Sequence record: AP025670.1
Origin: a plasmid
Reading direction: 5' to 3' (one strand)
DNA: 64,000 nucleotides
A program made the position numbers and the translations under genes. This document shows, piece by piece, positions 9,621 to 24,078 of this stretch; position 1 is the stretch's first letter, and each line of letters starts with the position of its first letter. The notes beneath the pieces were generated by a model, which saw only the letters and a program-made list of their open reading frames with translations, was not told the origin of the DNA and searched no databases.

Positions 9621-10688
9621 TTGACAGGAATTCTTAGCCAACTGTACGTACTTTATGCTGACATCAGCAACCGAGTCATGGACACACTATCTGATTTTGC
9701 CCCAAGAGTAGAAACGTATAGTATCGACGAGCAGTATCTAGATATGACCGGCATGTCTAGAAACTTTCCATTAGAAGATTACGGTCGCAAGATACAACAA
9801 CGAATTTTGCAGATAGCTCATGTACCGGTCGGTGTTGGTTTTGCTCAAACTAAAACACTGGCTAAACTGGCAAACCATGCTGCTAAAACATGGACCAAAA
9901 CAGGCGGTGTAGTCGATTTGAGTGCTACTTCACGCCAGAAACGGCTCATGTCCCTTGTGCCTGTTAATGAAGTATGGGGTGTGGGTAGAAAAATAAGTAA
10001 CCGGCTAAATGCTATGGGGATAGTTACAGCGCTTGATTTGGCTAGGGCTGAAACAACCATGATCCGTAAAACATTCGGTGTGGTTGTAGAACGCACTGTG
10101 AGAGAGCTGAACGGTGAATCTTGCATCGAGCTTGAAGAAGTAGCAAAAACTAAAGAGCAAATCATTTGTTCACGTTCATTTGGAAAAAAAATTGAGCTCT
10201 ATGAGCATATGCATCAGGCTATCTGCGAGTATTCAGAGAGAGCAGCAGAGAAACTTCGAGCTGAAAAACGAGTCTGTTCCTTTGTTTCTGTTTTTATCCA
10301 AACCAGCCATTACGCCAGCGGACCTCAATACTACAACCACCGTTCTGAACGGTTAGAATATCCAAGTGCTGATACAAGAGACATTATCAATGCAGCAGTG
10401 CGTCTGTTAAAGACCATCTGGAAATCGGGAGTTAAATATCACAAAGCTGGCATCATGCTCACTGATTTTTCTGATCCATCAGTTACTCAACTTAATTTAT
10501 TTTCTGATAGTAAACCCTACAAAGGAAGTGAACAATTGATGAAAACCTTGGACCAGATAAATAATCGAGGTGTTAGCAAAATATGGTTCGCTGGAAAGGG
10601 AATGGACACAAACTGGCGCATGAAGCGAGAAATGCTTTCACCGGCATACACTACGAGAATTTCAGATCTTCCCGTAGTGAAGATTTAG
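9621..10688 (+). pseudogene. 3' portion of a Y-family error-prone DNA polymerase gene (UmuC/RumB/MucB-like). It lacks about 70 N-terminal codons and has no umuD partner
   Basis: Aligns with UmuC from its …LYADMSNRV… region onward (QTKTLAKLANHAAK, …LSPAYTTRISDLPVVKI C-terminus). The 580 bp upstream are non-coding. Confidence 0.8.
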
Positions 10689-11039
10689 AGGAAATCCACC
10701 AGCGTATTCAGCAGGATTCACCGCAATCCTACAATTGCTTCAACCAGTATACCTAAATTGAGAACGTCTTTCGTTTAGAATTATATTCATATTTCTGAAC
10801 ATTATTAAGATAATGAAACAATCATTATCAATTTATGATTGTTGCGATATGTCATTGATATGATTATCTTTAACACTTTTACCCTCTGGAGTTGTTCGCC
10901 TTTAACTAATTGATAGCAATGCACATAAATCGAAATGATGCCGTTTTCCTTATGTAACTAAGGAAAATAGAAAATCCTGTGTGATAGCCTTACGTCGAAT
11001 AAAAATAATACCTAGTTACACAATGACAAGGCGAGGACT

Positions 11040-12086
11040 ATGAATACTAACGCAGCAATTTCAACGAATAGCAGTCAACAAAATTCGAATATGAGCAAGG
11101 TACTTCTCAATGACCTACCCTACCCTACTCTGAAGAAAAATACTGAAGCGCACAATATCTCAACATTACGCAAAATGTCTGATGCCTTTGAGGAAAAGGT
11201 GTGTTCGCGTGGTGATATTTATCGCGTTAACGTTGAGTTACTGTACGTACAGGAAGGTTTCAATCTTCGGGAGATTGATACTGAACATGCTGGACGAATC
11301 AAGAATTCGTATGTATCAGGTGTTTATGTTCCACCTATCGTTGTGAAAGTTATAACGGTTGATAATCTGCCACGCTTACAGATTATTGATGGACACCACA
11401 GATATTGCGCTCTACGCATGGCAATGGAAGAAGGATGCACGATTAAAGGCGTATACGTCACGGAGTTCTCAGGCAGTCAGCAACTTGAGATCGTCAATAT
11501 GCTGACATCTTCAGAAGGAAAACCTTTAGCTCCGTTAGAAAAAGCTGATGGTTTCCATCGTTTACTTAGTATGGGATGGGAAAAAAAGGAAATTGCACGA
11601 TATACGAACACAAGTGTTGTTACGATCAACAGATTATTACGCTTGTTCCGAGCAGATTACAGAATCACTGATCTTGTCAGAAAGAACCTGATTACTTCAG
11701 ATTTAGCCATAGAAATACTGCTTGAGTGTGAAGAAACTAATCAAGAGGCATATGATGTGATCATTGCAGGATTGCAGAAGGCGACTGACAGCGGCAAAAA
11801 TAAAGTCACACGGAAATTTGTACCTTCAGCGAAGAAAGTACCTTTTTCAAAAAAAGAAATACATTCCGTGTTTTCACAATTAAGTGAAATCCGCACAACA
11901 ATTCACGACAAAGTTGCTGATATTCAAGAAAATGATGAAACAGTGACTGTCGAAATGCCGGTAACAATTGTGACCCTGCTTAATGATGTTCTTCAGAAGT
12001 TTGCGAATGATGAATCCGCCGCATCTAATGATGATGAGAACGAACCGAGCAAAACCGAATCCAACACTGAAGCTATTCAGGCTTAA
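11040..12086 (+). CDS. ParB-like nuclease-domain protein (IIDGHHR motif) with a C-terminal acidic tail
   Basis: ParB/Srx fold signature …LQIIDGHHRYCAL… plus an HTH-like middle region. Confidence 0.6.
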   Translation: MNTNAAISTNSSQQNSNMSKVLLNDLPYPTLKKNTEAHNISTLRKMSDAFEEKVCSRGDIYRVNVELLYVQEGFNLREIDTEHAGRIKNSYVSGVYVPPIVVKVITVDNLPRLQIIDGHHRYCALRMAMEEGCTIKGVYVTEFSGSQQLEIVNMLTSSEGKPLAPLEKADGFHRLLSMGWEKKEIARYTNTSVVTINRLLRLFRADYRITDLVRKNLITSDLAIEILLECEETNQEAYDVIIAGLQKATDSGKNKVTRKFVPSAKKVPFSKKEIHSVFSQLSEIRTTIHDKVADIQENDETVTVEMPVTIVTLLNDVLQKFANDESAASNDDENEPSKTESNTEAIQA

Positions 12087-12088
12087 CT

Positions 12089-12433
12089 ATGGAATTACTT
12101 AACAAGGTGCAACTGATCGCACGATTAGGTTCGTCCCCGAAAGATAATCTGAAGTATTCAGAACGTAACGGTGAGGCAATGACCTACTTCTCTGTTGCAA
12201 TTAACCGGCATGACTCGAAAGGAAACCCGATAACAGATTGGTTTAACATTAGTGCATACGGAAAAATAGCAGAAATAGCAGCTAATTTTGGTCAGAAAGG
12301 ACAACTTGTTTACATCGAAGCAAGGCTACAACCGACTAATAATTCCTGTTCTATAATAATGAATTACCAGACAGGTGTGTTTAGAGTATTACCTAATAGT
12401 AAAAATACAAATGCAGGAGAGCAGAATGGCTAA
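12089..12433 (+). CDS. ssb: SSB-like OB-fold protein, short (114 aa) and lacking the usual acidic C-terminal tail. It may be decayed
   Basis: N-terminus MELLNKVQLIARLGSSPK…W…GKIAEIAANFGQKGQLVYIEARLQ resembles SSB. The C-terminus diverges and is overlapped by the next ORF. Confidence 0.5.
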   Translation: MELLNKVQLIARLGSSPKDNLKYSERNGEAMTYFSVAINRHDSKGNPITDWFNISAYGKIAEIAANFGQKGQLVYIEARLQPTNNSCSIIMNYQTGVFRVLPNSKNTNAGEQNG

Positions 12434-12848
12434 GGCAGACCAAATTTCAAATTGTAACGTTCAAAATCCTAATTATGTGATGGCAGAAATGAAACGAGAT
12501 CAAACAGTTCTAAACTATGCCCTATTTAAAGCGCGTGAGAAGCTACACGAGCTCAAACACCTAATGAATACGTCACAGTGCAGTGAAAGTGAAATTTTGC
12601 GCTATAACGGGGTTTTGGAGATGCTGGATAGCATATTTTCATCAGATGAAAAGGAACGTCAGAACTTATATCACTCTATGATCATGTCTGGTGTACAAAT
12701 CATGTCCGGTAAGTTAAGTGGTGAGAATAGACAAGCCGTATTAGAAGCAACGACACCAGATCAGTTGGATGAGGTTTTAAAAGCCTCGGAAAATGAGGTA
12801 TGGACTGAGTTGCAACTGCTATGTGAACAGCAGAACAACCTAAACTAA
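12427..12848 (+). CDS. hypothetical protein (about 140 aa)
   Basis: AGGAGAG RBS before the ATG at 12427 (the listed ORF starts earlier at 12375). Confidence 0.4.
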
Positions 12849-12857
12849 GAATCCAAA

Positions 12858-13250
12858 ATGAAACTGACAATATCCTTGCCTTTCATTCTGATAACTACGC
12901 TGATCTCAGTGCCAGCGTTGGGTAATAGTTATTCTGCAATGGAAGGGATTGAAGGACAGCGATATTCTGATTTAGAGAAATACAAAGCCAACTGTCCAGC
13001 TTGTATGAGTGTTGTACAAAACATTAAAGATATCCGCTATCGGGCATGTGCACAATCAGTCACGGCAGATGATGTGATAATTAGGGACCCATTATATGGC
13101 TATTTGAATAGTTTGAAATTCATGTTGAATGATGATGCTTATAAACAGGTATTGACAATCATTGGTCATGAGAAGGATTGTTCTAATAGTATGAATTGGC
13201 TAGAAAAGGCTAATTCAAAGATCGAGCCACAGCTAAACAAGACATATTGA
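12858..13250 (+). CDS. secreted hypothetical protein (signal peptide, 130 aa)
   Basis: N-terminal signal-like hydrophobic segment. Confidence 0.4.
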   Translation: MKLTISLPFILITTLISVPALGNSYSAMEGIEGQRYSDLEKYKANCPACMSVVQNIKDIRYRACAQSVTADDVIIRDPLYGYLNSLKFMLNDDAYKQVLTIIGHEKDCSNSMNWLEKANSKIEPQLNKTY

Positions 13251-13404
13251 CGGCTATGTGCTGCGCTTTGTACCTCTATTTTTCTGCCCTGCCAAAATGA
13301 CAGCCAAAAAAAAACGCCACAATGTGGCGTTATAACCCTAGTGTTGGTACTTATTATAATCATATAACGTATGGCAAAACTAATTATACACATAAACACC
13401 CATG

Positions 13405-13475
13405 TGTATATGTGTTAATGTGTATTTGTGTGTGATTCGTCACATATACACATATGTGTTAATGTGTGTACGCAC
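13405..13475. repeat. Iteron cluster 1: copies of TGTGTTAATGTGT
   Basis: Motif TGTGTTAATGTGT at 13411 and about 13456, with related TGTGTATATGTGT. Confidence 0.6.
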
Positions 13476-13591
13476 ATATAAAAATATTTTAGGCTTTATA
13501 GGTAATCAATCTAAAATCTAAGTGAAGAATTAAATCACAGGTACAATAATAAAAAGCAAAAACACTACCAGTTAAAGTAGAGGACCGGAGC

Positions 13592-13960
13592 ATGTTTGTT
13601 TTTAATGAAGAAACGTTCCAACGGAACCCCAGTAATCCATGTCCAGATAATGAATTCAATAGTGACGTGATTGATTTTATAAAGGAAATAAGAAAGTTTT
13701 ATCCTGAGTTAGAACATTGGAGCAATACCGGTGTACTGTTTGCTTGGGAAGGATATCTGCAAGATGTATACGCGGTCGGTTGGACTGAATTGGTACGCAA
13801 GAGAGAGAACGGCTTTCTCGCATACTGCTACATATCGCAGTTACGACCATGCTTTGATTTTGGTGGAACAGGGACATACAACACTGAAGTTTGGGATCTT
13901 GGAGAGCAAGAGCCGTGGAAAAAACAACTATTGCCAAAACTACCAGATTGGCTCGAATAA
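13592..13960 (+). CDS. hypothetical protein (122 aa)
   Basis: ORF only. Confidence 0.35.
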   Translation: MFVFNEETFQRNPSNPCPDNEFNSDVIDFIKEIRKFYPELEHWSNTGVLFAWEGYLQDVYAVGWTELVRKRENGFLAYCYISQLRPCFDFGGTGTYNTEVWDLGEQEPWKKQLLPKLPDWLE

Positions 13961-14057
13961 TTGAGCATGAGGCACTTTTGTTTTGAATGTTACCTAGTGA
14001 AATTGAGATAAAAGTACAATAAAAAGGGATGAAATATCATCCCTATAAAACCACTAC

Positions 14058-14285
14058 CTATTCATTTTCCTTTAGCCACTGATGAACATAATCTGATATT
14101 ACATCTTTCATTGTGGTGTTTCGTTTGACACATGCAGCTTTGAATCGAATTTGAGTATCTTCGTCAAGATCTACATTAATGCGTTTGGTTTTTGTACTTT
14201 TATCAAGAATTTTATCTAAGTCTCTGTTTTCACCGAATTTCATTTTCTGTGAATTTGCTGATTCGTTAACTTTTTTAAGTGCCAT
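14058..14285 (-). CDS. ParG-like ribbon-helix-helix centromere-binding protein (75 aa)
   Basis: Small basic protein directly downstream of the ParA gene; RHH-like C-terminal half. Confidence 0.5.
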   Translation of the reverse strand: MALKKVNESANSQKMKFGENRDLDKILDKSTKTKRINVDLDEDTQIRFKAACVKRNTTMKDVISDYVHQWLKENE

Positions 14286-14299
14286 AAAGTATCTCTTTT

Positions 14300-14385
14300 A
14301 ATTTCAAAACACATATGCGCTTATGTGTTTTAGCGCACACGTGTAGATACACGTTCGTGTTAATGTGTTAATGTGTGAATACACA
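14300..14385. repeat. Iteron cluster 2 (GTGTTAATGTGTTAATGTGTG) between the ParG and ParA genes
   Basis: Overlapping tandem copies of the same 13-mer. Confidence 0.6.
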
Positions 14386-15009
14386 TTATGACTCAAAAAT
14401 AGTCAAAATTTCTCTGGTTAGTATTTCTATCTCGCCTTTTGCATTTCCATCATTAGTTTCAAAAATACTCTTACCATCTAGAATAGATTTGATATAGCTC
14501 TGCCGTTGAGAAATAGCTGTTTTGAAAGAAGGCAAGCCAGTATCTTTGAGGTTGTCTTTTAATACTTGCAACATAGTTGTTTGGTCAATTTTACGAGTAA
14601 TCAGAAATCTAGCTTCTACTTTACGGCTGTATGCTTGAGCTTCGAGGACCGATGTAACACTACCGGCTGCGGAAAAATCAAGAGGGCTTGGCGAGACTGG
14701 AATTATAACTAGATCACTAACCATAACTGCTGCTGATGTAATGACAGAAAGTGAACCAGCTCCATCTACAATGACAAAATCATAATCACTTAGATCTTTA
14801 CGGATGCTATAAACGTCTTTCTCACTGGCGGCGGTGAAAACATCATAATCACAGTTCCCTTCTTTAGACCAGTTAGATAGGCTCATTTGAGGATCTGTAT
14901 CTACAACTGCTAATAAATAACCTGCTTTCTGCATAGCAGTAGCAACATTTATGACGGTGGTTGTTTTTCCAGAGCCGCCTTTCGGATTTAAAAAAGAAAT
15001 TACTTTCAC
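14386..15009 (-). CDS. parA: small ParA/ParF-type (type Ib) partition ATPase, 207 aa
   Basis: Deviant Walker A KGGSGKTT, and DTDPQ / VIVDGAG motifs. Confidence 0.8.
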   Translation of the reverse strand: MKVISFLNPKGGSGKTTTVINVATAMQKAGYLLAVVDTDPQMSLSNWSKEGNCDYDVFTAASEKDVYSIRKDLSDYDFVIVDGAGSLSVITSAAVMVSDLVIIPVSPSPLDFSAAGSVTSVLEAQAYSRKVEARFLITRKIDQTTMLQVLKDNLKDTGLPSFKTAISQRQSYIKSILDGKSIFETNDGNAKGEIEILTREILTIFES

Positions 15010-15054
15010 TGGAAAACCTCATATGTTTGTTTGTGTTTTTTTCATTATCTAAGG

Positions 15055-15235
15055 AAGCCAAAAAATAATCAATGTGTATTTGTGTTAATGTGTATTTAAG
15101 CAAAAACACATTAAATTATAAGAAAAACATACCTGACCTGTGAAATCAGTTAGTTACACACGCGATAATGTGTTTATGTGTTTATGTGTTTAGTCACATT
15201 AACACAATCAACAATGTTGATACATTTAAATTAGA
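15055..15235. repeat. Iteron cluster 3 upstream of parA (AATGTGTATTTGTGTTAATGTGT, AATGTGTTTATGTGTTTATGTGTTT, and the inverted copy CACATTAACACAAT)
   Basis: Same motif in both orientations; candidate centromere and promoter-operator of the par operon. Confidence 0.6.
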
Positions 15236-15278
15236 GTGCTACTATTAAAACTCGGACGTTGAATTGTAGAGGTGATAA

Positions 15279-15524
15279 ATGGCTCAGGTCACAGTAAAAA
15301 AATGGGGCAATAGCCCGTCTGTACGGCTTCCTGTTGCAATCATGCAAAAAGCGGCACTTAGCGTTGATGATACGGTTGAAATAGCGGTAGAAGAAGGTCG
15401 TATCATCATTACGCCAGTTAAAGCAGTAGAATACTCATTAGAAAATTTGTTAGCCGGTATCACGCCGGAGAATATTCATGAGAAAGTAGACTTCGGAGCT
15501 CGAACAGGTAAGGAATTAATTTAA
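15279..15524 (+). CDS. mazE: MazE/PemI-family antitoxin
   Basis: MAQVTVKKWGNSPSVRLP… SpoVT/AbrB swapped-hairpin N-terminus; 1-bp overlap with the toxin gene. Confidence 0.8.
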   Translation: MAQVTVKKWGNSPSVRLPVAIMQKAALSVDDTVEIAVEEGRIIITPVKAVEYSLENLLAGITPENIHEKVDFGARTGKELI

Positions 15525-15856
15525 TGGTATCTCGATACGTTCCTGATTCTGGCGATTTGATTTGGATTGACTTTGATCCAGTTGAAGGACATGAGCAGGG
15601 CGGTCATCGTCCAGCAGTTGTCCTCAGCCCATTTGCATACAATAATAAAGTAGGGCTCTTATTATGCGTACCATGTACAACTAAGGGCAAAGGCTATCCA
15701 TTTGAATGCGAACTCTCGAACGAAAGAGACAGCTACGCATTAGCGGATCAAGTTACATGTGTTGACTGGAGAGCTCGTAAGGTTACTAAAAAGGGCAAAG
15801 TGGAGGCATCAGAACTGGCAGAGATAAAAGCTAAAGCAAAGGCGTTAATAGGTTAG
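15524..15856 (+). CDS. mazF: MazF/PemK-family endoribonuclease toxin
   Basis: MVSRYVPDSGDLIWIDFDP…GHRPAVVLSP…LLCVPCTT…WRARKVTKKG closely parallels E. coli MazF. Confidence 0.85.
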   Translation: MVSRYVPDSGDLIWIDFDPVEGHEQGGHRPAVVLSPFAYNNKVGLLLCVPCTTKGKGYPFECELSNERDSYALADQVTCVDWRARKVTKKGKVEASELAEIKAKAKALIG

Positions 15857-15886
15857 ATATAATAATTATAAGGGTTATGGGATAGA

Positions 15887-16267
15887 ATGGAAAATGAAAC
15901 ACTACACACAGCAACAGGTAATCAAACTCCTTTAGATAATGCTATATCATCATTAAGCTCTATTTTAGATGTTATTTTCACAGTAAATGATTATGTTTTG
16001 TTTTTTATAATTTTAATAATGATTTTCGCTAAATCGAAATCAAGACTATTCAAATTGGCATTTGGTTATTCTGGTATATCAGTTGTATTTTTACTCTCTA
16101 GCTATTTTATCAGGGATGATTTACTGTTTGATATTAATAATACACCGCGATTCGGATTATTAATGATCAATATAGGCATGATTACAACAGCATTATATTT
16201 AATATACTGGCTTATCTATCTATTCAACGAAAGTGGTATGATTGATAGCAAAAAGAGTGAACCATAG
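15887..16267 (+). CDS. small integral membrane protein (126 aa)
   Basis: Three hydrophobic helices. Confidence 0.4.
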   Translation: MENETLHTATGNQTPLDNAISSLSSILDVIFTVNDYVLFFIILIMIFAKSKSRLFKLAFGYSGISVVFLLSSYFIRDDLLFDINNTPRFGLLMINIGMITTALYLIYWLIYLFNESGMIDSKKSEP

Positions 16268-16324
16268 CTAACCGAAAAAGGGTGCTTGTATCACCAATCC
16301 TTCGTAATCTATAAAAGAGAAAAT

Positions 16325-16342
16325 GTGGGGGTTTCCCCCCAC
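16325..16342 (-). terminator. Perfect palindrome GTGGGGG-TTT-CCCCCAC followed by a T-rich run on the minus strand (terminator of the hok-like gene)
   Basis: Seen directly 3' of the hok-like stop. Confidence 0.6.
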
Positions 16343-16352
16343 AAGAGCAACA

Positions 16353-16496
16353 TTACTTATCACAAGATAGCGTAGCTTGAACCACTGTGCCTCCGCTTGT
16401 GAAATTTAGTGAACATAAGCGATCACGCATTAACAATGAGAAGCACAGAACTGTGATGCACACAGCAATCAGCCCAATCAGGGCAAATTTGCTCAT
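16353..16496 (-). CDS. Hok/Gef-family type I toxin (47 aa: MSKFALIGLIAVCITVLCFSLLMRDRLCSLNFTSGGTVVQATLSCDK), absent from the ORF table
   Basis: Manual minus-strand translation. It has a single TM helix, the …ICIT… core, the R-x-x-LC motif and a polar tail, as in Hok/Gef/HokB. A GTGGGGGTTTCCCCCCAC hairpin follows the stop. Confidence 0.65.
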   Translation of the reverse strand: MSKFALIGLIAVCITVLCFSLLMRDRLCSLNFTSGGTVVQATLSCDK

Positions 16497-16860
16497 TTCT
16501 CTTGACTCCTTGAGTAAAAGGAGACAGAATCAAATTGCGAAGTTTGTAGACTGCCTCGAATTAAGGGTTATACCTGATTCGGGGCTTTCGTCTTTTTGGC
16601 TCGTATCAATGCTCGAACCAAAATGATTCAAGCACCCAAAACGATATTAGCAGATTATTATTAATTGCAATACTATTTATTATTAATAATATTTGTTTGT
16701 TTTTATGATATTTCTTTAAGTATTTTAATATAAATGGCTCATACTAACTTGAATTGAATAATATCAATTATATATTTAAATATTCTATGAAATCACCATA
16801 TATTAGTGGTGGGTATAATTTTATTTACACCCACATGTTATTAATACCTTTCAATAAACC

Positions 16861-17691
16861 TTAATAGCTACCTTTGTAGCAAGTAGAGATGAATTGTAAT
16901 TCTCCGTTATTAGATATTTTTGAGTGTAGCACATCAATGCTATATTTAATCATAAAATCTGAAATCTCTTTTGTACAAAAGCTATTCTTCCATTTAGATA
17001 TTCTTGATATGTTTTGTTCAAAAGCAAACGCATCAACATCTGCATTTTTAAGAGAGAGTAACTTTTTATCTGTGGTATCAAAATTTAGCATATAAGTATT
17101 AACCGGACTAGACATCGTTTGTGTAACACCAATATATTTAACATCCCACGCATTAGTTTTATTGAATGAATTGGTTATGTACTCATCTAGCCAGATGTTT
17201 ATCTTATCCATTTCATCCTTAGATGTTTCCTTCTTGTCAATAAAATCATTTCTACTAAATATATATGTTTTTAAGGTTTCTCCGTTAACAACATCTCTTA
17301 TAGTTAGCACATTGTTTGCCGTAGAGAAAAATATCTGTGGTTCAGACAGATCAGCACCATACCAACGAGCATTGGGTAAGTTTTCGTCAAAGAAACTTAG
17401 TCTGTTTGTTGACTCTTTTCTACACAGATATGAAAAGAGTTTACCATCTTGGCTTCTTATGTATCTAATTCTACTGATATTATTTGAAATTTCCGTCGAT
17501 TGCATTATATCTATATCACGATCATATATGGTAGATAATCCTGCTTTACAAATTTCTGATAGTGAAAATGACATTTGACTTTCAGCGGAAATCGCATTTT
17601 GGATATGTGTGATACTCAATGATAAGACTGCAAATAAAATTAATTTATTGGCTTTCACATTTTTTCCTTTATTTTTACTATAAATTAGCAC
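16861..17691 (-). CDS. secreted hypothetical protein (signal peptide, 276 aa)
   Basis: N-terminal signal-like segment KLILFAVLSLSITHIQNA. Confidence 0.4.
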   Translation of the reverse strand: MLIYSKNKGKNVKANKLILFAVLSLSITHIQNAISAESQMSFSLSEICKAGLSTIYDRDIDIMQSTEISNNISRIRYIRSQDGKLFSYLCRKESTNRLSFFDENLPNARWYGADLSEPQIFFSTANNVLTIRDVVNGETLKTYIFSRNDFIDKKETSKDEMDKINIWLDEYITNSFNKTNAWDVKYIGVTQTMSSPVNTYMLNFDTTDKKLLSLKNADVDAFAFEQNISRISKWKNSFCTKEISDFMIKYSIDVLHSKISNNGELQFISTCYKGSY

Positions 17692-18060
17692 TTATAGAAT
17701 TATAAAAATTTATAATTATAGCTACATGGTAGCTATTCAATTGATTCTGATATTACCAAAAAAAGGAAATCACTAATCAGTGTATTAAACCTACTTTCTA
17801 CCCACAAATTCATAATACAAGTTACATTATGGATTTTAATCATCAATAATGTGCAATATATCACCGAGTATTGTTATATTTGCAATAATATCTATGTTTT
17901 AACTTTTGGATGATAAATCCTTGTGTTACTCTTTACTCGGTTAAATATACGTTTAATGTAGTAACTTTTTTTATTTTATGATTTATGGTTAATGATGCTA
18001 TTTGATGCACCAGAATTCACCACAATTTTCACACCAATTTTCAGCACCAAGGAGGCACTG

Positions 18061-19017
18061 ATGGGAGAGTTAATTTTACGTGACACCGTAACAGATATTG
18101 TTGATGTAAATAACATGACGAAAAACACCAACAATCCAGCAACCAGCTACTTGCTACGGCTCCGTTCCAAACAAAGTCAAAAGACAATGCGATCCTGTCT
18201 AGTGTCAGTGGTGAAATTGTTTCGTGCTATGGACCCGTTTACTTTCGATTGGTCAATCATGGATCGAGATGCCGTTCAATTGGTACTTCAGAAATTAATA
18301 CTGGAGAAAAAGACCCCAAATAGTATCAACTTGATATTGAGTGCCATTAAAGGGGTGGCTGAAGAAGCCAGAGCATCACGAGTCATAGATAGTGATACAT
18401 ATCAGGATATTAGAAGCATACGCCGGATTCGTGGGAACCGTATTGGTCGAGGGCGTTCACTGAGTAGTAGTGAAATAACGCACATTTATCAGCATCTTGA
18501 TAGCATAAATACCGCAGTCTCGGTACGTGATGCAGCGATTGTATCATTAATGCTTGGCTGTGGTTTGCGCCGTGCTGAAGTCACTTTGTTGGATATGGAA
18601 GATATCAATTTTGATAATTACTCCATTAAAATCATGGGTAAAGGAAACAAAGAAAGAACTAACTTCATGCCAAGTGACACGCTCCGTCGTATTCGCTTAT
18701 GGATAGAAACTGTAAGAGGGGATCATACCGGTGCAGTTTTTACCCGCATACGTAAAAATGATGATGTAACTTGCGATAGAATAACAACCGATGGTTTACG
18801 GTATATTATTGATAAATTGGTGAAAGATTCAGACTCAGATTCATTTACACCGCATGATTGCCGACGAACCTATGCCACTAAGTTGTTAGAACTAGGTGAG
18901 GACCTACTTACTGTCAGAGAAGCTATGGGACACAGTAGTGTCGCTACTACACAGCGATATGATAAACGAGGTGTAACACGCTTAGAGGCTGCTGCACGTA
19001 ATCTGCAATATTATTAG
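18061..19017 (+). CDS. tyrosine site-specific recombinase/integrase (XerC/D-like fold)
   Basis: Catalytic signature …HDCRRTYAT… and …GHSSVATTQRYD…; AAGGAGG RBS before the ATG at 18061 (the ORF is listed from 17992). Confidence 0.8.
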   Translation: MGELILRDTVTDIVDVNNMTKNTNNPATSYLLRLRSKQSQKTMRSCLVSVVKLFRAMDPFTFDWSIMDRDAVQLVLQKLILEKKTPNSINLILSAIKGVAEEARASRVIDSDTYQDIRSIRRIRGNRIGRGRSLSSSEITHIYQHLDSINTAVSVRDAAIVSLMLGCGLRRAEVTLLDMEDINFDNYSIKIMGKGNKERTNFMPSDTLRRIRLWIETVRGDHTGAVFTRIRKNDDVTCDRITTDGLRYIIDKLVKDSDSDSFTPHDCRRTYATKLLELGEDLLTVREAMGHSSVATTQRYDKRGVTRLEAAARNLQYY

Positions 19018-19030
19018 AGATATAACACAA

Positions 19031-19870
19031 ATGAGATCACAATCGCATTTTGTAGAAACTGAAGCTATAAAGATAGTCCACAATCAGATACCCAGTAAAA
19101 ATTGGGTGTTACGTTCCATTGGTGAAAGAGATTACGGCTCAGATTTCATGATTGAGCTTTTTGATAATAAAGAATCAACTGGTGATTGTTTTTTTGTACA
19201 ATCCAAAGGCACTGAAAAAACATTTACAGAAGATGTAAAAATCAGCTTTCCTGTTAACACTATAAAATATGCAATGCTATTTAACGTACCATTTTTTTTG
19301 TTTTATACGTCTATCACTTCAAAGCAAACAAAATTTATTTGGTTACAAAAATATACTAACTTAGTGCTTAATGAAAAAAATTGGGAAGATAAAAAGTCAA
19401 TAACAATCTATTTTCCAGAAGAAAATGACCTCTCTAAAAATAGAGAAAAAATAATCAAATTACTTGCAAATAGCCGTGCAGTTAATGATTTTATATCATT
19501 TAAGCATACAATCGAAAATTTGAAATTTTGGGGTGAAATGGTCATATATAACAATGATTATTATCATGGCAGTAAATGCATAGAATTATGTCACAAAATC
19601 AATGACATGAAAAATGTAATTTTATATGCATCTGAACTATATGTTGATGATAGTTGCCCTTTTGAAATGAGAACTCAGTATCAGAAACTTAGAATTAATA
19701 AAATGATTTCCACATTTAATAAATTCATTAAATATAAAAAAACAACAAATAAAAAGATTAACTTTATTAAAAAACAATTTGAAATATTAGATTGCATTTG
19801 TAATGACATTATTTCTTCATCAGAATTAGAAAGATGGGGTTATGAGTCTGAAGCCTTAATTCCATTTTAA
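19031..19870 (+). CDS. DUF4365-like / PD-(D/E)xK nuclease-fold N-terminal domain protein (279 aa)
   Basis: …ETEAIKIV…NWVLRSIGERDYGSDFMIELF…GDCFFVQSKG… fits the D…D-x-(E)…(Q/E)xK restriction-endonuclease-like signature. Starts 14 bp after the integrase gene. Confidence 0.5.
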   Translation: MRSQSHFVETEAIKIVHNQIPSKNWVLRSIGERDYGSDFMIELFDNKESTGDCFFVQSKGTEKTFTEDVKISFPVNTIKYAMLFNVPFFLFYTSITSKQTKFIWLQKYTNLVLNEKNWEDKKSITIYFPEENDLSKNREKIIKLLANSRAVNDFISFKHTIENLKFWGEMVIYNNDYYHGSKCIELCHKINDMKNVILYASELYVDDSCPFEMRTQYQKLRINKMISTFNKFIKYKKTTNKKINFIKKQFEILDCICNDIISSSELERWGYESEALIPF

Positions 19871-19890
19871 TTTATTTTGAGATAATTATA

Positions 19891-20901
19891 ATGAGAAATT
19901 TAACCACATGGACTTGTTCCGAAATAACAAAGTTGATTGGGACTATTGACGAACCATTCTTCATTGAAAAAATATGCAAATTTACCGGACGTAGTGTAAA
20001 TGATGTCCTCTCTAAATTGTTGCACATGGGATTGTGTGAAATAAACTATAAGGATAATAAGATATCTACGGCTAGGAATACAAATTTAAACCATCTCATT
20101 CCTTATTCATCATTTATTCCTAAATTATTAGAACTTGGTTGGATATATGAGTTATTAAATAGGGAGGAATCTCTTAAAGCCCCCAAGTGGTGGGTAAATA
20201 ATGATCAGTTCCCTATAAGTAACACTATCGAATTGAATCGTAATGAAACAGTATGGGTTAATGAGGAAATTCATACAGTTATCTCCATGATACAAAACAA
20301 GATGAACCTAAGCTCAATCGCAAATAAAATACATAGAAATCAATCATCTATTACCGCAATGTTAATAGATCTTGGTATTTTAGAATGCATTGATAAACAA
20401 GAAATCTTTTTGTCTGAAGTTAATGAATTGAAACTTTCAAAGTATACATTTAATAATGCGCTTGTTCTTATTAATCATGGATGGGTTGTTACCAACAATA
20501 ATTTATCTGCGCCTAATTGGTGGCTTGAAAATAACAAGGATAATAAGAATGTTCATAATAGCCACTACGATGAAAGGAAAGAAATAACCGGTAATGATAG
20601 CAGACAATTGTATATGTTTATTAAATCAGAATTAGAGGGCATACTAAACACTATTCATGAAAATAAGCGTATCGAAGAATTGTCAGATGTAACGTATTTA
20701 GGTTATACACTTGCAGATTTAACGACCTACATTGGTATTACTTCAGTTAAGGTAGCAGGGCAGGTCACAAAGAACAATAAAACCCACATGAGCTATTTTA
20801 TGGATAAACCTTATAATATAAAGAAAATGTTGATTAACTTTGGTTGGAAAGTTTCAGATGATTCATTAGCAGCTCCTGAATGGTGGTCTAATGAAGAATA
20901 A
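19891..20901 (+). CDS. repeat protein with three HTH-like modules, each ending in GW…L(K/S/A)AP.WW
   Basis: Internal repeats …LGWIYELLNREESLKAPKWW…, …NHGWVVTNNNLSAPNWW…, …NFGWKVSDDSLAAPEWW…. Confidence 0.45.
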   Translation: MRNLTTWTCSEITKLIGTIDEPFFIEKICKFTGRSVNDVLSKLLHMGLCEINYKDNKISTARNTNLNHLIPYSSFIPKLLELGWIYELLNREESLKAPKWWVNNDQFPISNTIELNRNETVWVNEEIHTVISMIQNKMNLSSIANKIHRNQSSITAMLIDLGILECIDKQEIFLSEVNELKLSKYTFNNALVLINHGWVVTNNNLSAPNWWLENNKDNKNVHNSHYDERKEITGNDSRQLYMFIKSELEGILNTIHENKRIEELSDVTYLGYTLADLTTYIGITSVKVAGQVTKNNKTHMSYFMDKPYNIKKMLINFGWKVSDDSLAAPEWWSNEE

Positions 20902-21313
20902 ATACATCTCTTTCATTCAAATTATTTTTTTTACCGTTGCTTGTGTATATCCAGCGTATTTATTAATACGCAGAAAAAACATAATTGATATTTCCATGTT
21001 AATATTTATTGTATTAATTGCAGTAATTGGAGATTTTATTGAGTGCATAACATTAATTGAATTATCTAAGATGTTAGCATCATTCTTTCTTATTGCAATT
21101 TATGTGAATTGCTACCGCAGCTATTTTAAGTACTCTAAAAGTAATATTGATTTAATTAGTTTTAAAGCAGTAGATAATAAGATGGGGTATCTTGTTTTTT
21201 CCAGTGAAACTATATGTTATTTCTTGCCTTTAAAAATAAGTAGCCACTTTAATATGTTATGGTTTTATGGATATTTGAAAGCCATAACCATGCACCTTCA
21301 AAATAGAAAGTGA
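20891..21313 (+). CDS. small multi-pass membrane protein (140 aa), overlapping the previous gene
   Basis: Three to four hydrophobic helices; start overlaps the upstream stop. Confidence 0.4.
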   Translation: MKNKYISFIQIIFFTVACVYPAYLLIRRKNIIDISMLIFIVLIAVIGDFIECITLIELSKMLASFFLIAIYVNCYRSYFKYSKSNIDLISFKAVDNKMGYLVFSSETICYFLPLKISSHFNMLWFYGYLKAITMHLQNRK

Positions 21314-21393
21314 TACTTTTAAGACTGTTTACTAAGAAAAAAGATACCATATAACGGGTACATTGCCTTTTTAATTTCTGAAGGCTGAAGCTC

Positions 21394-22143
21394 ATGAACT
21401 TCATAAGTACCCTTATTCTTGCACTTATCCTACGAATTCTTTACCTCATATATCGAAAACGTAAGCCTAGTTTTTATACTGTTAGCTTGGTAATAATATC
21501 AGTTATTGTGTGGTCCGTTAAATCCTACCTATTGGACTATTACATTATCCCAACATCCTCTATGGCACCGACATTAAAAGCCGGTGATCTCATTTTTGCA
21601 AAGCCGGTTGACACGCAAAAAGAGCAATTGATGCGTGGAGATATCGTGATTTTCCGAGCTCCTGCATTCCCTTCATTCATTTATGTAAAACGCATAATCG
21701 GATTGGCTGGCGATACTATCACTTATGCCGATGATAAGTCAGTCCAGATCAACGGAAGGATGATCGGGCAGCTAAACCATCATAATGACCATACGAGTAC
21801 CTATCAGGCGCTTCAGGAACGTAATGCGCAACAATATGAGTACGTCATTGATAACCGTAAACCATTCGTTAAGCCAATTTATACACAATGGGTAATCCCT
21901 GATGGATATGTTTTTGTTCTTGGCGATAACAGGGATCACTCATGGGATTCACGGTTTTTTGAAAATGCAGTTGGAACTCCAAGGCATTTGCGAGGGCTTG
22001 TTAAAAAGGAACTTTTGATAAGCCGGTATTTAGCCACGGCTTTTACACTTGAGTTTATGAAAAGCGATTTTGATATAGGGGAGAATAGCTTAAAAGTAAT
22101 TTCTGAAGCTCAAACGGCAGAGGGGAATGATGGGGATAAATAG
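21394..22143 (+). CDS. signal peptidase I (S26 family; LepB/TrhF-like)
   Basis: N-terminal TM helix, catalytic-Ser box …SSMAPTLKAGDLIF… and the conserved …GDNRDHSWDSRFF… box. Confidence 0.8.
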   Translation: MNFISTLILALILRILYLIYRKRKPSFYTVSLVIISVIVWSVKSYLLDYYIIPTSSMAPTLKAGDLIFAKPVDTQKEQLMRGDIVIFRAPAFPSFIYVKRIIGLAGDTITYADDKSVQINGRMIGQLNHHNDHTSTYQALQERNAQQYEYVIDNRKPFVKPIYTQWVIPDGYVFVLGDNRDHSWDSRFFENAVGTPRHLRGLVKKELLISRYLATAFTLEFMKSDFDIGENSLKVISEAQTAEGNDGDK

Positions 22144-22480
22144 AAGCTGTATCGCATTAGTTTGCTTTTTCTTGTCATCTTGTGGTTCTACCACAGGGGC
22201 GATCACTACACACGAGCATCTTGTGACGCAAGCCACACAAGATAAGCATGTCAGTTCAGGTGGCTTCGACAGAGTAGCTGATACCTATGTACTGGCAAGA
22301 GAGATTACTGGTCTTGAATCCAACGAAATAAAGCAACTCTATGAGGTGAAGGGGAGTGACAACACATTAATAAAAATTGATATGGCATCTATACCATGCT
22401 CGATATTGCTTAAAAAGAACACAAGTCAAAGTAGTGAGATTTGGCTTATAACTGATATGGGTTGCAATGAATATTTATAA
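22127..22480 (+). CDS. small lipoprotein (lipobox LSSC)
   Basis: Signal peptide ending …FFLSSCGS; overlaps the upstream gene. Confidence 0.5.
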   Translation: MMGINRSCIALVCFFLSSCGSTTGAITTHEHLVTQATQDKHVSSGGFDRVADTYVLAREITGLESNEIKQLYEVKGSDNTLIKIDMASIPCSILLKKNTSQSSEIWLITDMGCNEYL

Positions 22481-23036
22481 AATCTCAGTAATCAGCTCCC
22501 TTTTATTTTCTTCTTTGTCATACAGCAAACCTATTTTTATAGGAGATTCACTTACCTATGAGATAGCTAAAGGGTACAGCACAATCCAAGCTGTTGATGC
22601 TCGATACAAAGTAGGTAGCGGATTATCCACAAAGAATATCCTTGATTGGCAGAGATACGCAGAGCAATTCAGTTTTGAAGAATACGATACCGTTTATGTG
22701 ATTCTCGGTACTAACGACCATGTTCAAATATCAGAAAAAGAAAAGTACACCTCTAAAGTTCGGCATTTTATCCAAACCATAAAAGCCAGAAACCAAAATG
22801 TAATCTGGTTACTTCCTCCAACCCTTAAAGACACCGCCAAAAACAGACTATTAGATAACACTCGGCAAGCCATAATGACGGCTTCGCAGATAGAGGGGAT
22901 CACCACCGTAGATACACGAACGGTTCTTGGTGAAACATACAAGGATGTCATAGATGGGACAACAGTTCGCACAAAGGATGGAATACATATCACTCCAAAC
23001 GGAGCCTTACTTACCGTGACACAGCTACTATTTTAG
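22467..23036 (+). CDS. secreted SGNH/GDSL hydrolase
   Basis: Signal peptide, GDSL block …IFIGDSLTYE… and C-terminal …DGIHITPNG… (DxxH). Confidence 0.65.
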   Translation: MNIYKISVISSLLFSSLSYSKPIFIGDSLTYEIAKGYSTIQAVDARYKVGSGLSTKNILDWQRYAEQFSFEEYDTVYVILGTNDHVQISEKEKYTSKVRHFIQTIKARNQNVIWLLPPTLKDTAKNRLLDNTRQAIMTASQIEGITTVDTRTVLGETYKDVIDGTTVRTKDGIHITPNGALLTVTQLLF

Positions 23037-23053
23037 TAAATTGGAATGTTGTA

Positions 23054-23989
23054 ATGAGAAGAAAGCGTAGATTTAAGAAACGAAATCCCTATGTAACTAA
23101 TATGAATATTGCATTTATATTCTATATGACCACTCTGGTATTTCTTAGATTTGATTCTATTGCGAGAGTTTTAACTTTAGTAATACCTTTATTTGCTGTT
23201 TATATATTGTCACCTAGCAGCAAAATATTGAGGTTACACAAGAGAAAGAAACCTGAATGGGCTTCAGTGGGAATCAAAAGAAATGCCCCTCTATTAAACC
23301 CTCAAGTTGCATTAGTGATAATTGCTGTTACCACAATAACTGTATTTTTTCTTCGTTATGACCATGTAATAACAACGAAAATCATACAACTGATATGGGG
23401 AGATATAAAAACAGCATATGCTGATATTTTCGGGAAAAGCAGTGCGAATAAATTATTCTCTCTGAGGAATATCCCAGTTTGTACATATTATACATTCCAT
23501 ATATTACGTTCATGCGTTGCATTTCTGCTCGTGGCTTATTCAGCAAGTGTCTATTTTCGTTATAAACAACAAACTATGTTTAAAAAGGTACTTTTTAATG
23601 CCACCTATCATGAAGATGCATTGCAATTTATCCGAGAATTATCATGGCGAGAATTTGAGGAATTTATAAGAGAGTTATTCAACAGCCTTGGGTACAGAGC
23701 TACTGTCACTAATTATGGTCCAGATGGTGGGAAAGATATCATTATGGAACGTGATGGAATCAAAGTTTTCGCTCAATGCAAACACTGGAAATCTGACAAT
23801 GTAGGTGTTGCTATCGCCCGTGAAATGGTTGGTGTACTAGAAGCAGAACCCGAATTTAAGCATGTATTTCTAGTCACATCAGGTAAGTTTTCTAACGATG
23901 CAGTTCTATACAGTCACAGAACATCTGACCGTCTGACACTCATGGACGGAAAAATGATAGCCGATAAATTATTGCTGTTAAGAAAGTAA
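23054..23989 (+). CDS. membrane-anchored Mrr-cat (restriction-endonuclease-like, PD-(D/E)xK) protein
   Basis: Four N-terminal TM helices, then …FEEFIRELFNSLGY…YGPDGGKDIIMERDGIKVFAQCKHW…, which fits the Mrr catalytic-domain pattern (DGG-D … QCK). Confidence 0.6.
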   Translation: MRRKRRFKKRNPYVTNMNIAFIFYMTTLVFLRFDSIARVLTLVIPLFAVYILSPSSKILRLHKRKKPEWASVGIKRNAPLLNPQVALVIIAVTTITVFFLRYDHVITTKIIQLIWGDIKTAYADIFGKSSANKLFSLRNIPVCTYYTFHILRSCVAFLLVAYSASVYFRYKQQTMFKKVLFNATYHEDALQFIRELSWREFEEFIRELFNSLGYRATVTNYGPDGGKDIIMERDGIKVFAQCKHWKSDNVGVAIAREMVGVLEAEPEFKHVFLVTSGKFSNDAVLYSHRTSDRLTLMDGKMIADKLLLLRK

Positions 23990-24078
23990 TCCGCTTTTAG
24001 AACCTTTGCGCCCTATTCGTAGGGCGTAATTCTATAACATATATCAGATACACGTAACACAGATTATTGAGGCTCAAA

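Follow-up and report, generated by a model that had tools for sequence, protein, structure and literature searches.

The closest described relatives of the locus considered here are srnB/srnC of F, pndA/pndB of the IncI, IncK and IncB plasmids (e.g. R483), and the archetype of the family, hok/sok of R1. The locus lies on the minus strand of the window, i.e. the whole stretch of 64,000 nucleotides (nt) analyzed from plasmid record AP025670.1 (WIN in the comparisons), with an estimated extent of about 16275-16649. Very probably it is a type I toxin-antitoxin module for post-segregational killing, canonical for the hok/sok family and assignable to its SrnB/PndA subgroup; it is situated among the maintenance genes of a conjugative, AT-rich plasmid backbone of Proteus/Providencia. 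Direct support comes from the membership of both the protein and the leader RNA in their families, from RNA pairings that are conserved and covary, and from the purifying selection on the toxin open reading frame (ORF). The module appears typical and is apparently intact, and its toxin gene has already been annotated publicly.

The srnB/srnC locus (SrnB-type, represented by L008, next to repA) encodes the closest characterized toxin, with 64% identity over the whole peptide; its mRNA has the same length and the same order of elements (tac, local hairpin, ucb, mok Shine-Dalgarno (SD) sequence, dcb, hok SD hairpin, 3' stem-loop, fbi), its Sok-type promoter (TTGACC, 17 nt, TACAAT) is like that of the window, and it scores 95 bits with the Rfam sok model. 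It differs in having an ATG 5 nt past the SD, from which the leader is read in frame into the toxin, whereas in the window such an ATG is absent and the leader is read in the +1 frame with respect to hok; furthermore, it carries a tyrosine (TAC-G) in place of Cys45 of the window, and its tac and fbi elements deviate at two compensated positions. The PndA-type locus (L010), with 43% protein identity and 133 bits with the same Rfam model, possesses the same elements and supplies compensatory changes both for tac/fbi and for the local hairpin, but has a long leader ORF of about 68 codons, starting from an ATG 10 nt past AAGGG, and tyrosine instead of cysteine at the C-terminal position. The R1-type locus (L011; 87 bits) shares the regulatory logic, the layout and the 3' architecture with the window, in contrast to its protein, which is only 26% identical and, with 52 residues, has a longer N-terminus; its mok starts with ATG (ATATG) about 8 nt past GAGG, and the second, C-terminal cysteine is hard-coded only on the side of the window clade.

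The toxin itself is encoded by a short minus-strand reading frame, present with an ATG start and with the translation that the first-pass annotation had quoted for its 47-codon ORF:

16353..16496, minus strand: hok toxin coding sequence (47 amino acids (aa), ATG start, TAA stop, N-terminal transmembrane helix, Cys28 and Cys45)

The Hok/Gef identity proposed in that annotation is borne out by the Pfam family HOK_GEF (PF01848), which matches with 35.7 bits against a gathering cutoff of 22 (E = 6.4e-9), residues 5-45 aligning to profile positions 2-42 of 42. The peptide displays the layout of the family, with one predicted transmembrane helix near the N-terminus and a polar tail at the C-terminus: the Kyte-Doolittle mean (19-residue) peaks at 2.8 for residues 4-22 and drops to about 0-0.6 in the tail. 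The R-x-x-L-C motif, likewise noticed at first reading, is represented by Arg24, Leu27 and Cys28, which are invariant in seven aligned toxins, including the SrnB-type and PndA-type proteins and R1 Hok. Between the window and its relatives dN/dS of the ORF amounts to 0.02-0.10, with dS ranging from 0.5 to saturation, and by this measure the Hok reading frame is therefore under strong purifying selection, which lends a toxic function of the peptide indirect support only.

Codon 45 (16362-16364) is TGT, cysteine, in WIN, L002, L003 and L004. The same C-terminal position is occupied by tyrosine (TAC followed by G; columns ~295-300 of alignment A1, described below) in L005-L007 as well as in the SrnB-type and PndA-type loci, and R1 Hok has tyrosine at the equivalent position, too. 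A disulfide between the two corresponding cysteines was reported to be essential for the toxicity of HokB; in some hok mRNAs the tyrosine is recoded to cysteine by TadA-dependent A-to-I editing, and HokA of the E. coli chromosome hard-codes both cysteines (preprint 10.1101/2025.08.07.668861). HokA and HokB are Hok toxins with two cysteines, as is the window toxin with Cys28 and Cys45. Judged from the codon alignment, the window toxin is a hard-coded two-cysteine form, a minor variant.

The second line of evidence concerns the leader RNA. The Rfam sok model RF01794 matches 16486-16637 on the hok strand over its full length (model positions 1-157) with 74.8 bits against a gathering cutoff of 59; with E = 9e-15 for the whole window, it is the sole Rfam match at gathering score in the 64 kb. 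Taken together, the Pfam and Rfam E-values place the feature well beyond chance. For comparison, relatives with approximately 94%, 91%, 77% and 68% DNA identity were fetched, together with the SrnB-type IncF locus and the PndA-type IncK locus; nine full-length mRNAs were combined in alignment A1, the R1-type locus was used for comparison of the layout, and the definitions of the hok regulatory elements were taken from PMC9841398. RF01794 scores between 75 and 133 bits in eight fetched relatives and the R1-type locus. One further relative, L009 (NZ_CP145629.1, locus 384-635), has no match; its SrnB-like toxin is cut to 44 aa beside an IS26 transposase, and insertion of the element seems to have removed the regulatory leader. 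Another relative, L005 (NZ_OU659126.1, Providencia alcalifaciens plasmid 2, locus 448-600), carries a hok ORF that is left unannotated in the record and is frameshifted by a 1-nt deletion at A1 column 206, with a leader that scores 106 bits and retains tac and fbi; it looks like a recently inactivated copy.

It should be noted that RF01794, albeit named "sok antitoxin", models the leader of the hok mRNA from +1 to the toxin AUG and not the antisense strand; the matching strand is that of the toxin mRNA in all relatives and in the R1-type locus as well. If annotated from this model, "Sok" could be assigned to the wrong strand and come out too long by a factor of about 2.5.

The transcript and its elements can be laid out as follows, all on the minus strand:

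16644..16649: predicted hok promoter -10 hexamer TAATAT, 6 nt upstream of the predicted +1 (G 16637)
16275..16637: predicted full-length hok mRNA, about 363 nt (fold, consensus, R1-type layout)
16629..16637: tac element GGGUGCUUG, 5'-terminal in the mRNA, with fbi, the local partner and ucb as alternative partners
16609..16617: segment pairing with tac in the local 5' hairpin, which corresponds to the metastable hairpin formed by nascent hok mRNA
16581..16587: ucb (AAGCCCC), anti-SD of mok (tac/ucb covariation, RNAalifold, Rfam consensus structure)
16554..16557: mok SD (GAGG), conserved, pairing with ucb (closed) or dcb (open)
16521..16525: dcb (GUCUC), partner of the mok SD in the open conformation
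16506..16523: hok SD hairpin, AAGGAG 16511-16506 with CUCCUU 16523-16518, sequestering the hok SD
16324..16343: GC-rich stem-loop with a U-run after it, predicted to form the 3' end of the truncated, active hok mRNA
16280..16288: fbi element CAAGCACCC, with complementarity to tac; UUUUU (16279-16275) comes next

The predicted 5' end corresponds to position 1 of the Rfam model and to a conserved GGG; the 3' end would follow from fbi and the U-run. The hok promoter was missed by a generic promoter scan, and its -35 region is weak or non-canonical; the -10 hexamer was found by eye and by its conservation, a -10-like hexamer standing at equal distance from the GGG start in 10/10 loci compared. The interval assigned to the locus at first reading, 16300-16640, holds the ORF and the leader, but it leaves out fbi. 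In the minimum free energy (MFE) fold of 16640-16270 (-132.1 kcal/mol, z = -7.03) the 5' end is paired to the 3' end.

The nine related mRNAs support the assignment of the hok regulatory elements, several of these elements through compensatory base changes, and the fbi/tac fold-back that the first-pass annotation had proposed as a check is present and covarying. For tac/fbi (16637-16629 with 16288-16280), 96.3% of the alignment cells are paired, with three compensatory pairs, compared to 35-58% in slid controls; this end-pairing was recovered both in the MFE fold and in the RNAalifold consensus of the nine mRNAs. The local tac hairpin, whose counterpart is the metastable structure of hok mRNA described in PMC9841398, gave 93.8% paired cells and three compensatory pairs (slid controls 21-44%), and the tac/ucb stem is paired throughout (100%, two compensatory pairs). 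Across all pairings tested, the slid controls were paired at 21-68%. Position 7 of tac shows a compensatory change with all three partners, positions 4 and 6 with two each, the same pattern of coupled covariation as reported for hok mRNAs.

Further downstream, the GAGG of the mok SD is kept in eight of the nine aligned mRNAs and reads AAGGG in the ninth; in the closed form predicted by RNAalifold it pairs with ucb (columns 54-61 / 83-90), with compensatory changes. Its alternative pairing with dcb has 88.9% paired cells and one compensatory pair. The hok SD hairpin is found at RNAalifold columns 125-130 / 137-142, one of its pairs having four compensatory changes.

At the 3' side, a GC-rich stem-loop begins nine nt past the hok TAA stop. 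On the minus strand it reads UGUGGGGG-GAAA-CCCCCACA, a perfect 8-bp stem (six GC pairs) with a 4-nt loop, and continues with the T-rich run TTTTCTCTTT. The stem-loop is conserved, with a compensatory change from UA to CG at columns 318/336 (RNAalifold). The first-pass annotation had described the 18-mer 16325-16342 as a perfect terminator palindrome; the perfect stem stands, its role as final terminator probably does not. In the R1-type locus, the stop codon is followed after about 10 nt by a GC stem-loop with UUUU and, after about 30 nt, by fbi (AAGCGCC) with UUU, and the order in the window, i.e. stop codon, GC stem-loop with U-run, fbi, is the same. Given this shared layout, the palindrome is best read, by its position and by comparison with R1, as the protective 3' stem-loop that would end the truncated, active hok mRNA; disruption of the R1 stem-loop abolishes toxicity (PMC9841398). 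The stem-loop may terminate a fraction of transcripts, but since fbi (16280-16288) lies beyond it, the full-length hok transcript must read through. An Rfam match of a Dianthovirus 3' untranslated region over the palindrome (14.7 vs 100 bits, E = 0.83) was discarded as a chance hit.

The antisense partner is predicted from the plus strand, within the interval 16497-16640 in which the first-pass annotation expected a Sok-like RNA:

16502..16530, plus strand: predicted Sok promoter, TTGACT (16502), 17 nt, CAGAAT (sequence scan, conservation)
16537..16597, plus strand: predicted Sok RNA, about 61 nt: single-stranded 5' tail, long hairpin, U-run (ends estimated)

The promoter is conserved in 8/9 relatives (TTGACT or TTGACC, 17 nt, then CAGAAT, CACAAT or TACAAT). 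The predicted Sok folds with -26.4 kcal/mol (z = -3.98), lies within the RF01794 interval, and is complementary to the leader from ucb to the mok SD. Its 5' tail is complementary to the UUCG-containing leader segment in the loop of the mok SD/dcb hairpin (Rfam consensus), a match that would fit, by inference only, the recognition mode of R1. In silico, the prediction thereby agrees with a cis-antisense Sok of the size expected for the system (about 60-65 nt), transcribed from a promoter within the leader. RefSeq holds the toxin coding sequence only, and the related record checked shows neither Sok RNA nor mRNA elements.

With transcript ends, 3' processing, Sok expression, toxicity and plasmid stabilization modeled by homology on R1 hok/sok, the locus would operate as follows. 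The mRNA, stable and about 363 nt long (16637 to ~16275), would be made in a closed form, in which tac is paired to fbi and ucb holds the mok SD. Slow 3' trimming to the GC stem-loop (16343-16324) would take off fbi, whereupon tac would switch to ucb, freeing the mok SD and exposing the target loop. In plasmid-bearing cells, the unstable Sok of about 61 nt would bind the trimmed mRNA and lead to its decay. In plasmid-free segregants, Sok would be lost, the leader frame would be translated, the hok SD hairpin would open, and the 47-aa Hok would damage the inner membrane.

Several points weigh against a canonical module of this kind. The toxin scores below the cutoff of both NCBIfam models compared, with 35 bits vs 89 for the HokA equivalog NF007290 and 28.6 bits vs 73 for the Hok subfamily NF007279. 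The covariation comes from just nine sequences, and it is L008 and L010, the most distant two, that contribute most of the compensatory changes. The MFE structure of the predicted truncated mRNA lacks the tac/ucb stem, and tac pairs into the coding region instead. Finally, no ATG, GTG or near-cognate codon is found 5-13 nt past GAGG in WIN, L002, L003 and L004, and the first in-frame ATG, GTG or TTG after GAGG is a TTG at 16533, 20 nt downstream.

With regard to the first of these points, assignment to HokA or to the Hok subfamily was dropped; the subfamily scores mean that the toxin is a member of the Hok/Gef family without being orthologous to one of the named Hok proteins of E. coli; the window hok is plasmid-borne and overall most like SrnB. 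The MFE structure of the truncated mRNA (16637-16322) was set aside as evidence on the open form, being uninformative for an RNA of 316 nt, and covariation counts and the Rfam consensus were used. The leader frame deserves closer attention:

16423..16533, minus strand: mok-equivalent overlapping frame, 36 codons from TTG 16533 (open from 16560; start codon uncertain)

In every clade member and relative this frame runs through the hok ATG uninterrupted, and TTG 16533 sits 4 nt beyond the predicted end of the Sok duplex. A mok leader upstream of hok had been expected by the first-pass annotation; the overlapping open frame is there, but a canonical start codon beside its SD is not. Prediction of Mok is known not to be trivial (preprint 10.1101/2025.08.07.668861). 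A 33-aa minus-strand ORF in the hok frame (16530-16631) was rejected as a mok-like leader: its TTG is 6 nt away from the 5' terminus predicted for the mRNA, it has no SD, and a UGA stop closes it upstream of hok. It is conceivable, though on balance unlikely, that translation of Hok in the Morganellaceae-plasmid clade (WIN, L002-L004) is independent of a classical Mok. The conserved "mok SD" would then serve only in RNA structure and as a target of Sok, translation would begin at the distant TTG 16533 or directly at the hok SD, and, together with the hard-coded second cysteine that makes Tyr-to-Cys editing unnecessary, the locus would represent a streamlined hok/sok variant.

Among the other explanations, the one that survives best is a functional hok/sok module selected for another role, namely abortive-infection-type exclusion of phages or modulation of stress and persistence. 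Hok/sok of R1 reportedly excludes phage T4, and chromosomal hokB has been linked to persistence; in addition, post-segregational killing would be redundant next to the adjacent mazEF and partition systems. The locus is, however, placed in the maintenance cluster of the plasmid, and the sequence holds nothing that would separate a killing role from another one; we consider this explanation improbable. Still less probable is a translationally silent or decaying relic, in which the lack of a usable mok start would mean that Hok is never made and plasmid stabilization is lost. The missing start codon past GAGG in the four clade members speaks in its favor, and decay is known in the family, as the frameshifted hok of L005 with its intact leader and the truncated L009 beside IS26 illustrate. 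Against it stand the low dN/dS of the Hok ORF, the mok frame, which continues without a stop through the hok ATG in each member of the clade, the intact pairings and Sok promoter, and the retention of the locus at >=90% identity in 68 plasmid records from five genera. A real gene in the plus-strand 79-aa ORF (16387-16626), with a merely coincidental Hok-like ORF opposite, can practically be dismissed: although it is the only ORF of more than 60 aa in the interval, its sole family match is under the cutoff (Phostensin_N, 15.8 vs 23 bits), the stop-free antisense stretch shrinks to 44-54 aa in L004-L006, RefSeq does not annotate it, and the significant Pfam and Rfam matches lie on the opposite strand, in line with the earlier view of this ORF as a mis-call.

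For the post-segregational killing module as preferred here, the genomic setting is that of a plasmid backbone. Positions 10000-24000 of the window are 100% identical to the Providencia rettgeri plasmid p.BML2526 (NZ_LC507075.1), which is conjugative and typed as MOBH/MPF_F. The 500-bp locus is carried by 148 plasmid records, chiefly from Providencia and Proteus, and in 22 plasmid records the identity is at least 99%. The first-pass annotation had called the toxin locus unannotated. This proved incorrect: the identical coding sequence is annotated in p.BML2526 as "Hok/Gef family protein" (WP_071547955.1 in RefSeq) and had merely fallen below the 60-aa ORF cutoff of that reading. It is flanked in p.BML2526 by ParG, a ParF-like ATPase, MazE/MazF, a 126-aa hypothetical membrane protein, another hypothetical protein and an integrase. 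In the window the upstream maintenance cluster (14058-15856) comprises:

14058-14285, minus strand: ParG
14386-15009, minus strand: ParF-like AAA ATPase
15279-15524, plus strand: MazE-like protein
15524-15856, plus strand: MazF

A partition system and two toxin-antitoxin systems (mazEF, hok/sok) are thus packed into 2.5 kb. Between MazF and hok lies the 126-aa hypothetical ORF (15887-16267, plus strand), with 27% GC and hydrophobic stretches, which is convergent on the hok locus; about 8 nt separate its stop codon from the point where the full-length hok mRNA is predicted to end.

According to the general Hok survey, hok is present on 32% (15/46) of the surveyed Proteus plasmids (preprint 10.1101/2025.08.07.668861); apart from this preprint, no account specific to hok/sok on Proteus or Providencia plasmids was found in the literature. 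Beside mazEF and the partition system, the locus would help to explain the stable persistence of multidrug-resistance conjugative plasmids in Proteus, Providencia and Morganella. Its significance beyond annotation is small: ORF-length cutoffs conceal toxins of such size, and scans with Pfam and Rfam are the right way to find them, while the absent canonical mok start and the hard-coded Cys45 offer small natural comparisons to specialists in type I toxin-antitoxin systems.

The base composition had been described by the first-pass annotation as a local GC-rich islet. In 200-nt windows, GC is 0.405-0.43 across 16200-16599, which is indeed richer than the direct flanks (0.27 at 15900-16199 and 0.22-0.23 at 16600-16899), but the adjoining genes for mazEF, the ParF-like ATPase and the integrase have 0.39-0.455, and the mean of the entire window is 0.45. 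The pattern is that of a structured coding locus amid AT-rich spacers and not of a distinctive islet. The mean of 45%, set against the AT-rich backbone, is due to a resistance island of higher GC at 36000-60000, which contains a mer operon, a class 1 integron/tni module, IS1326 and elements of the IS5075/IS4321 type, and which is common to thousands of Enterobacterales plasmids.

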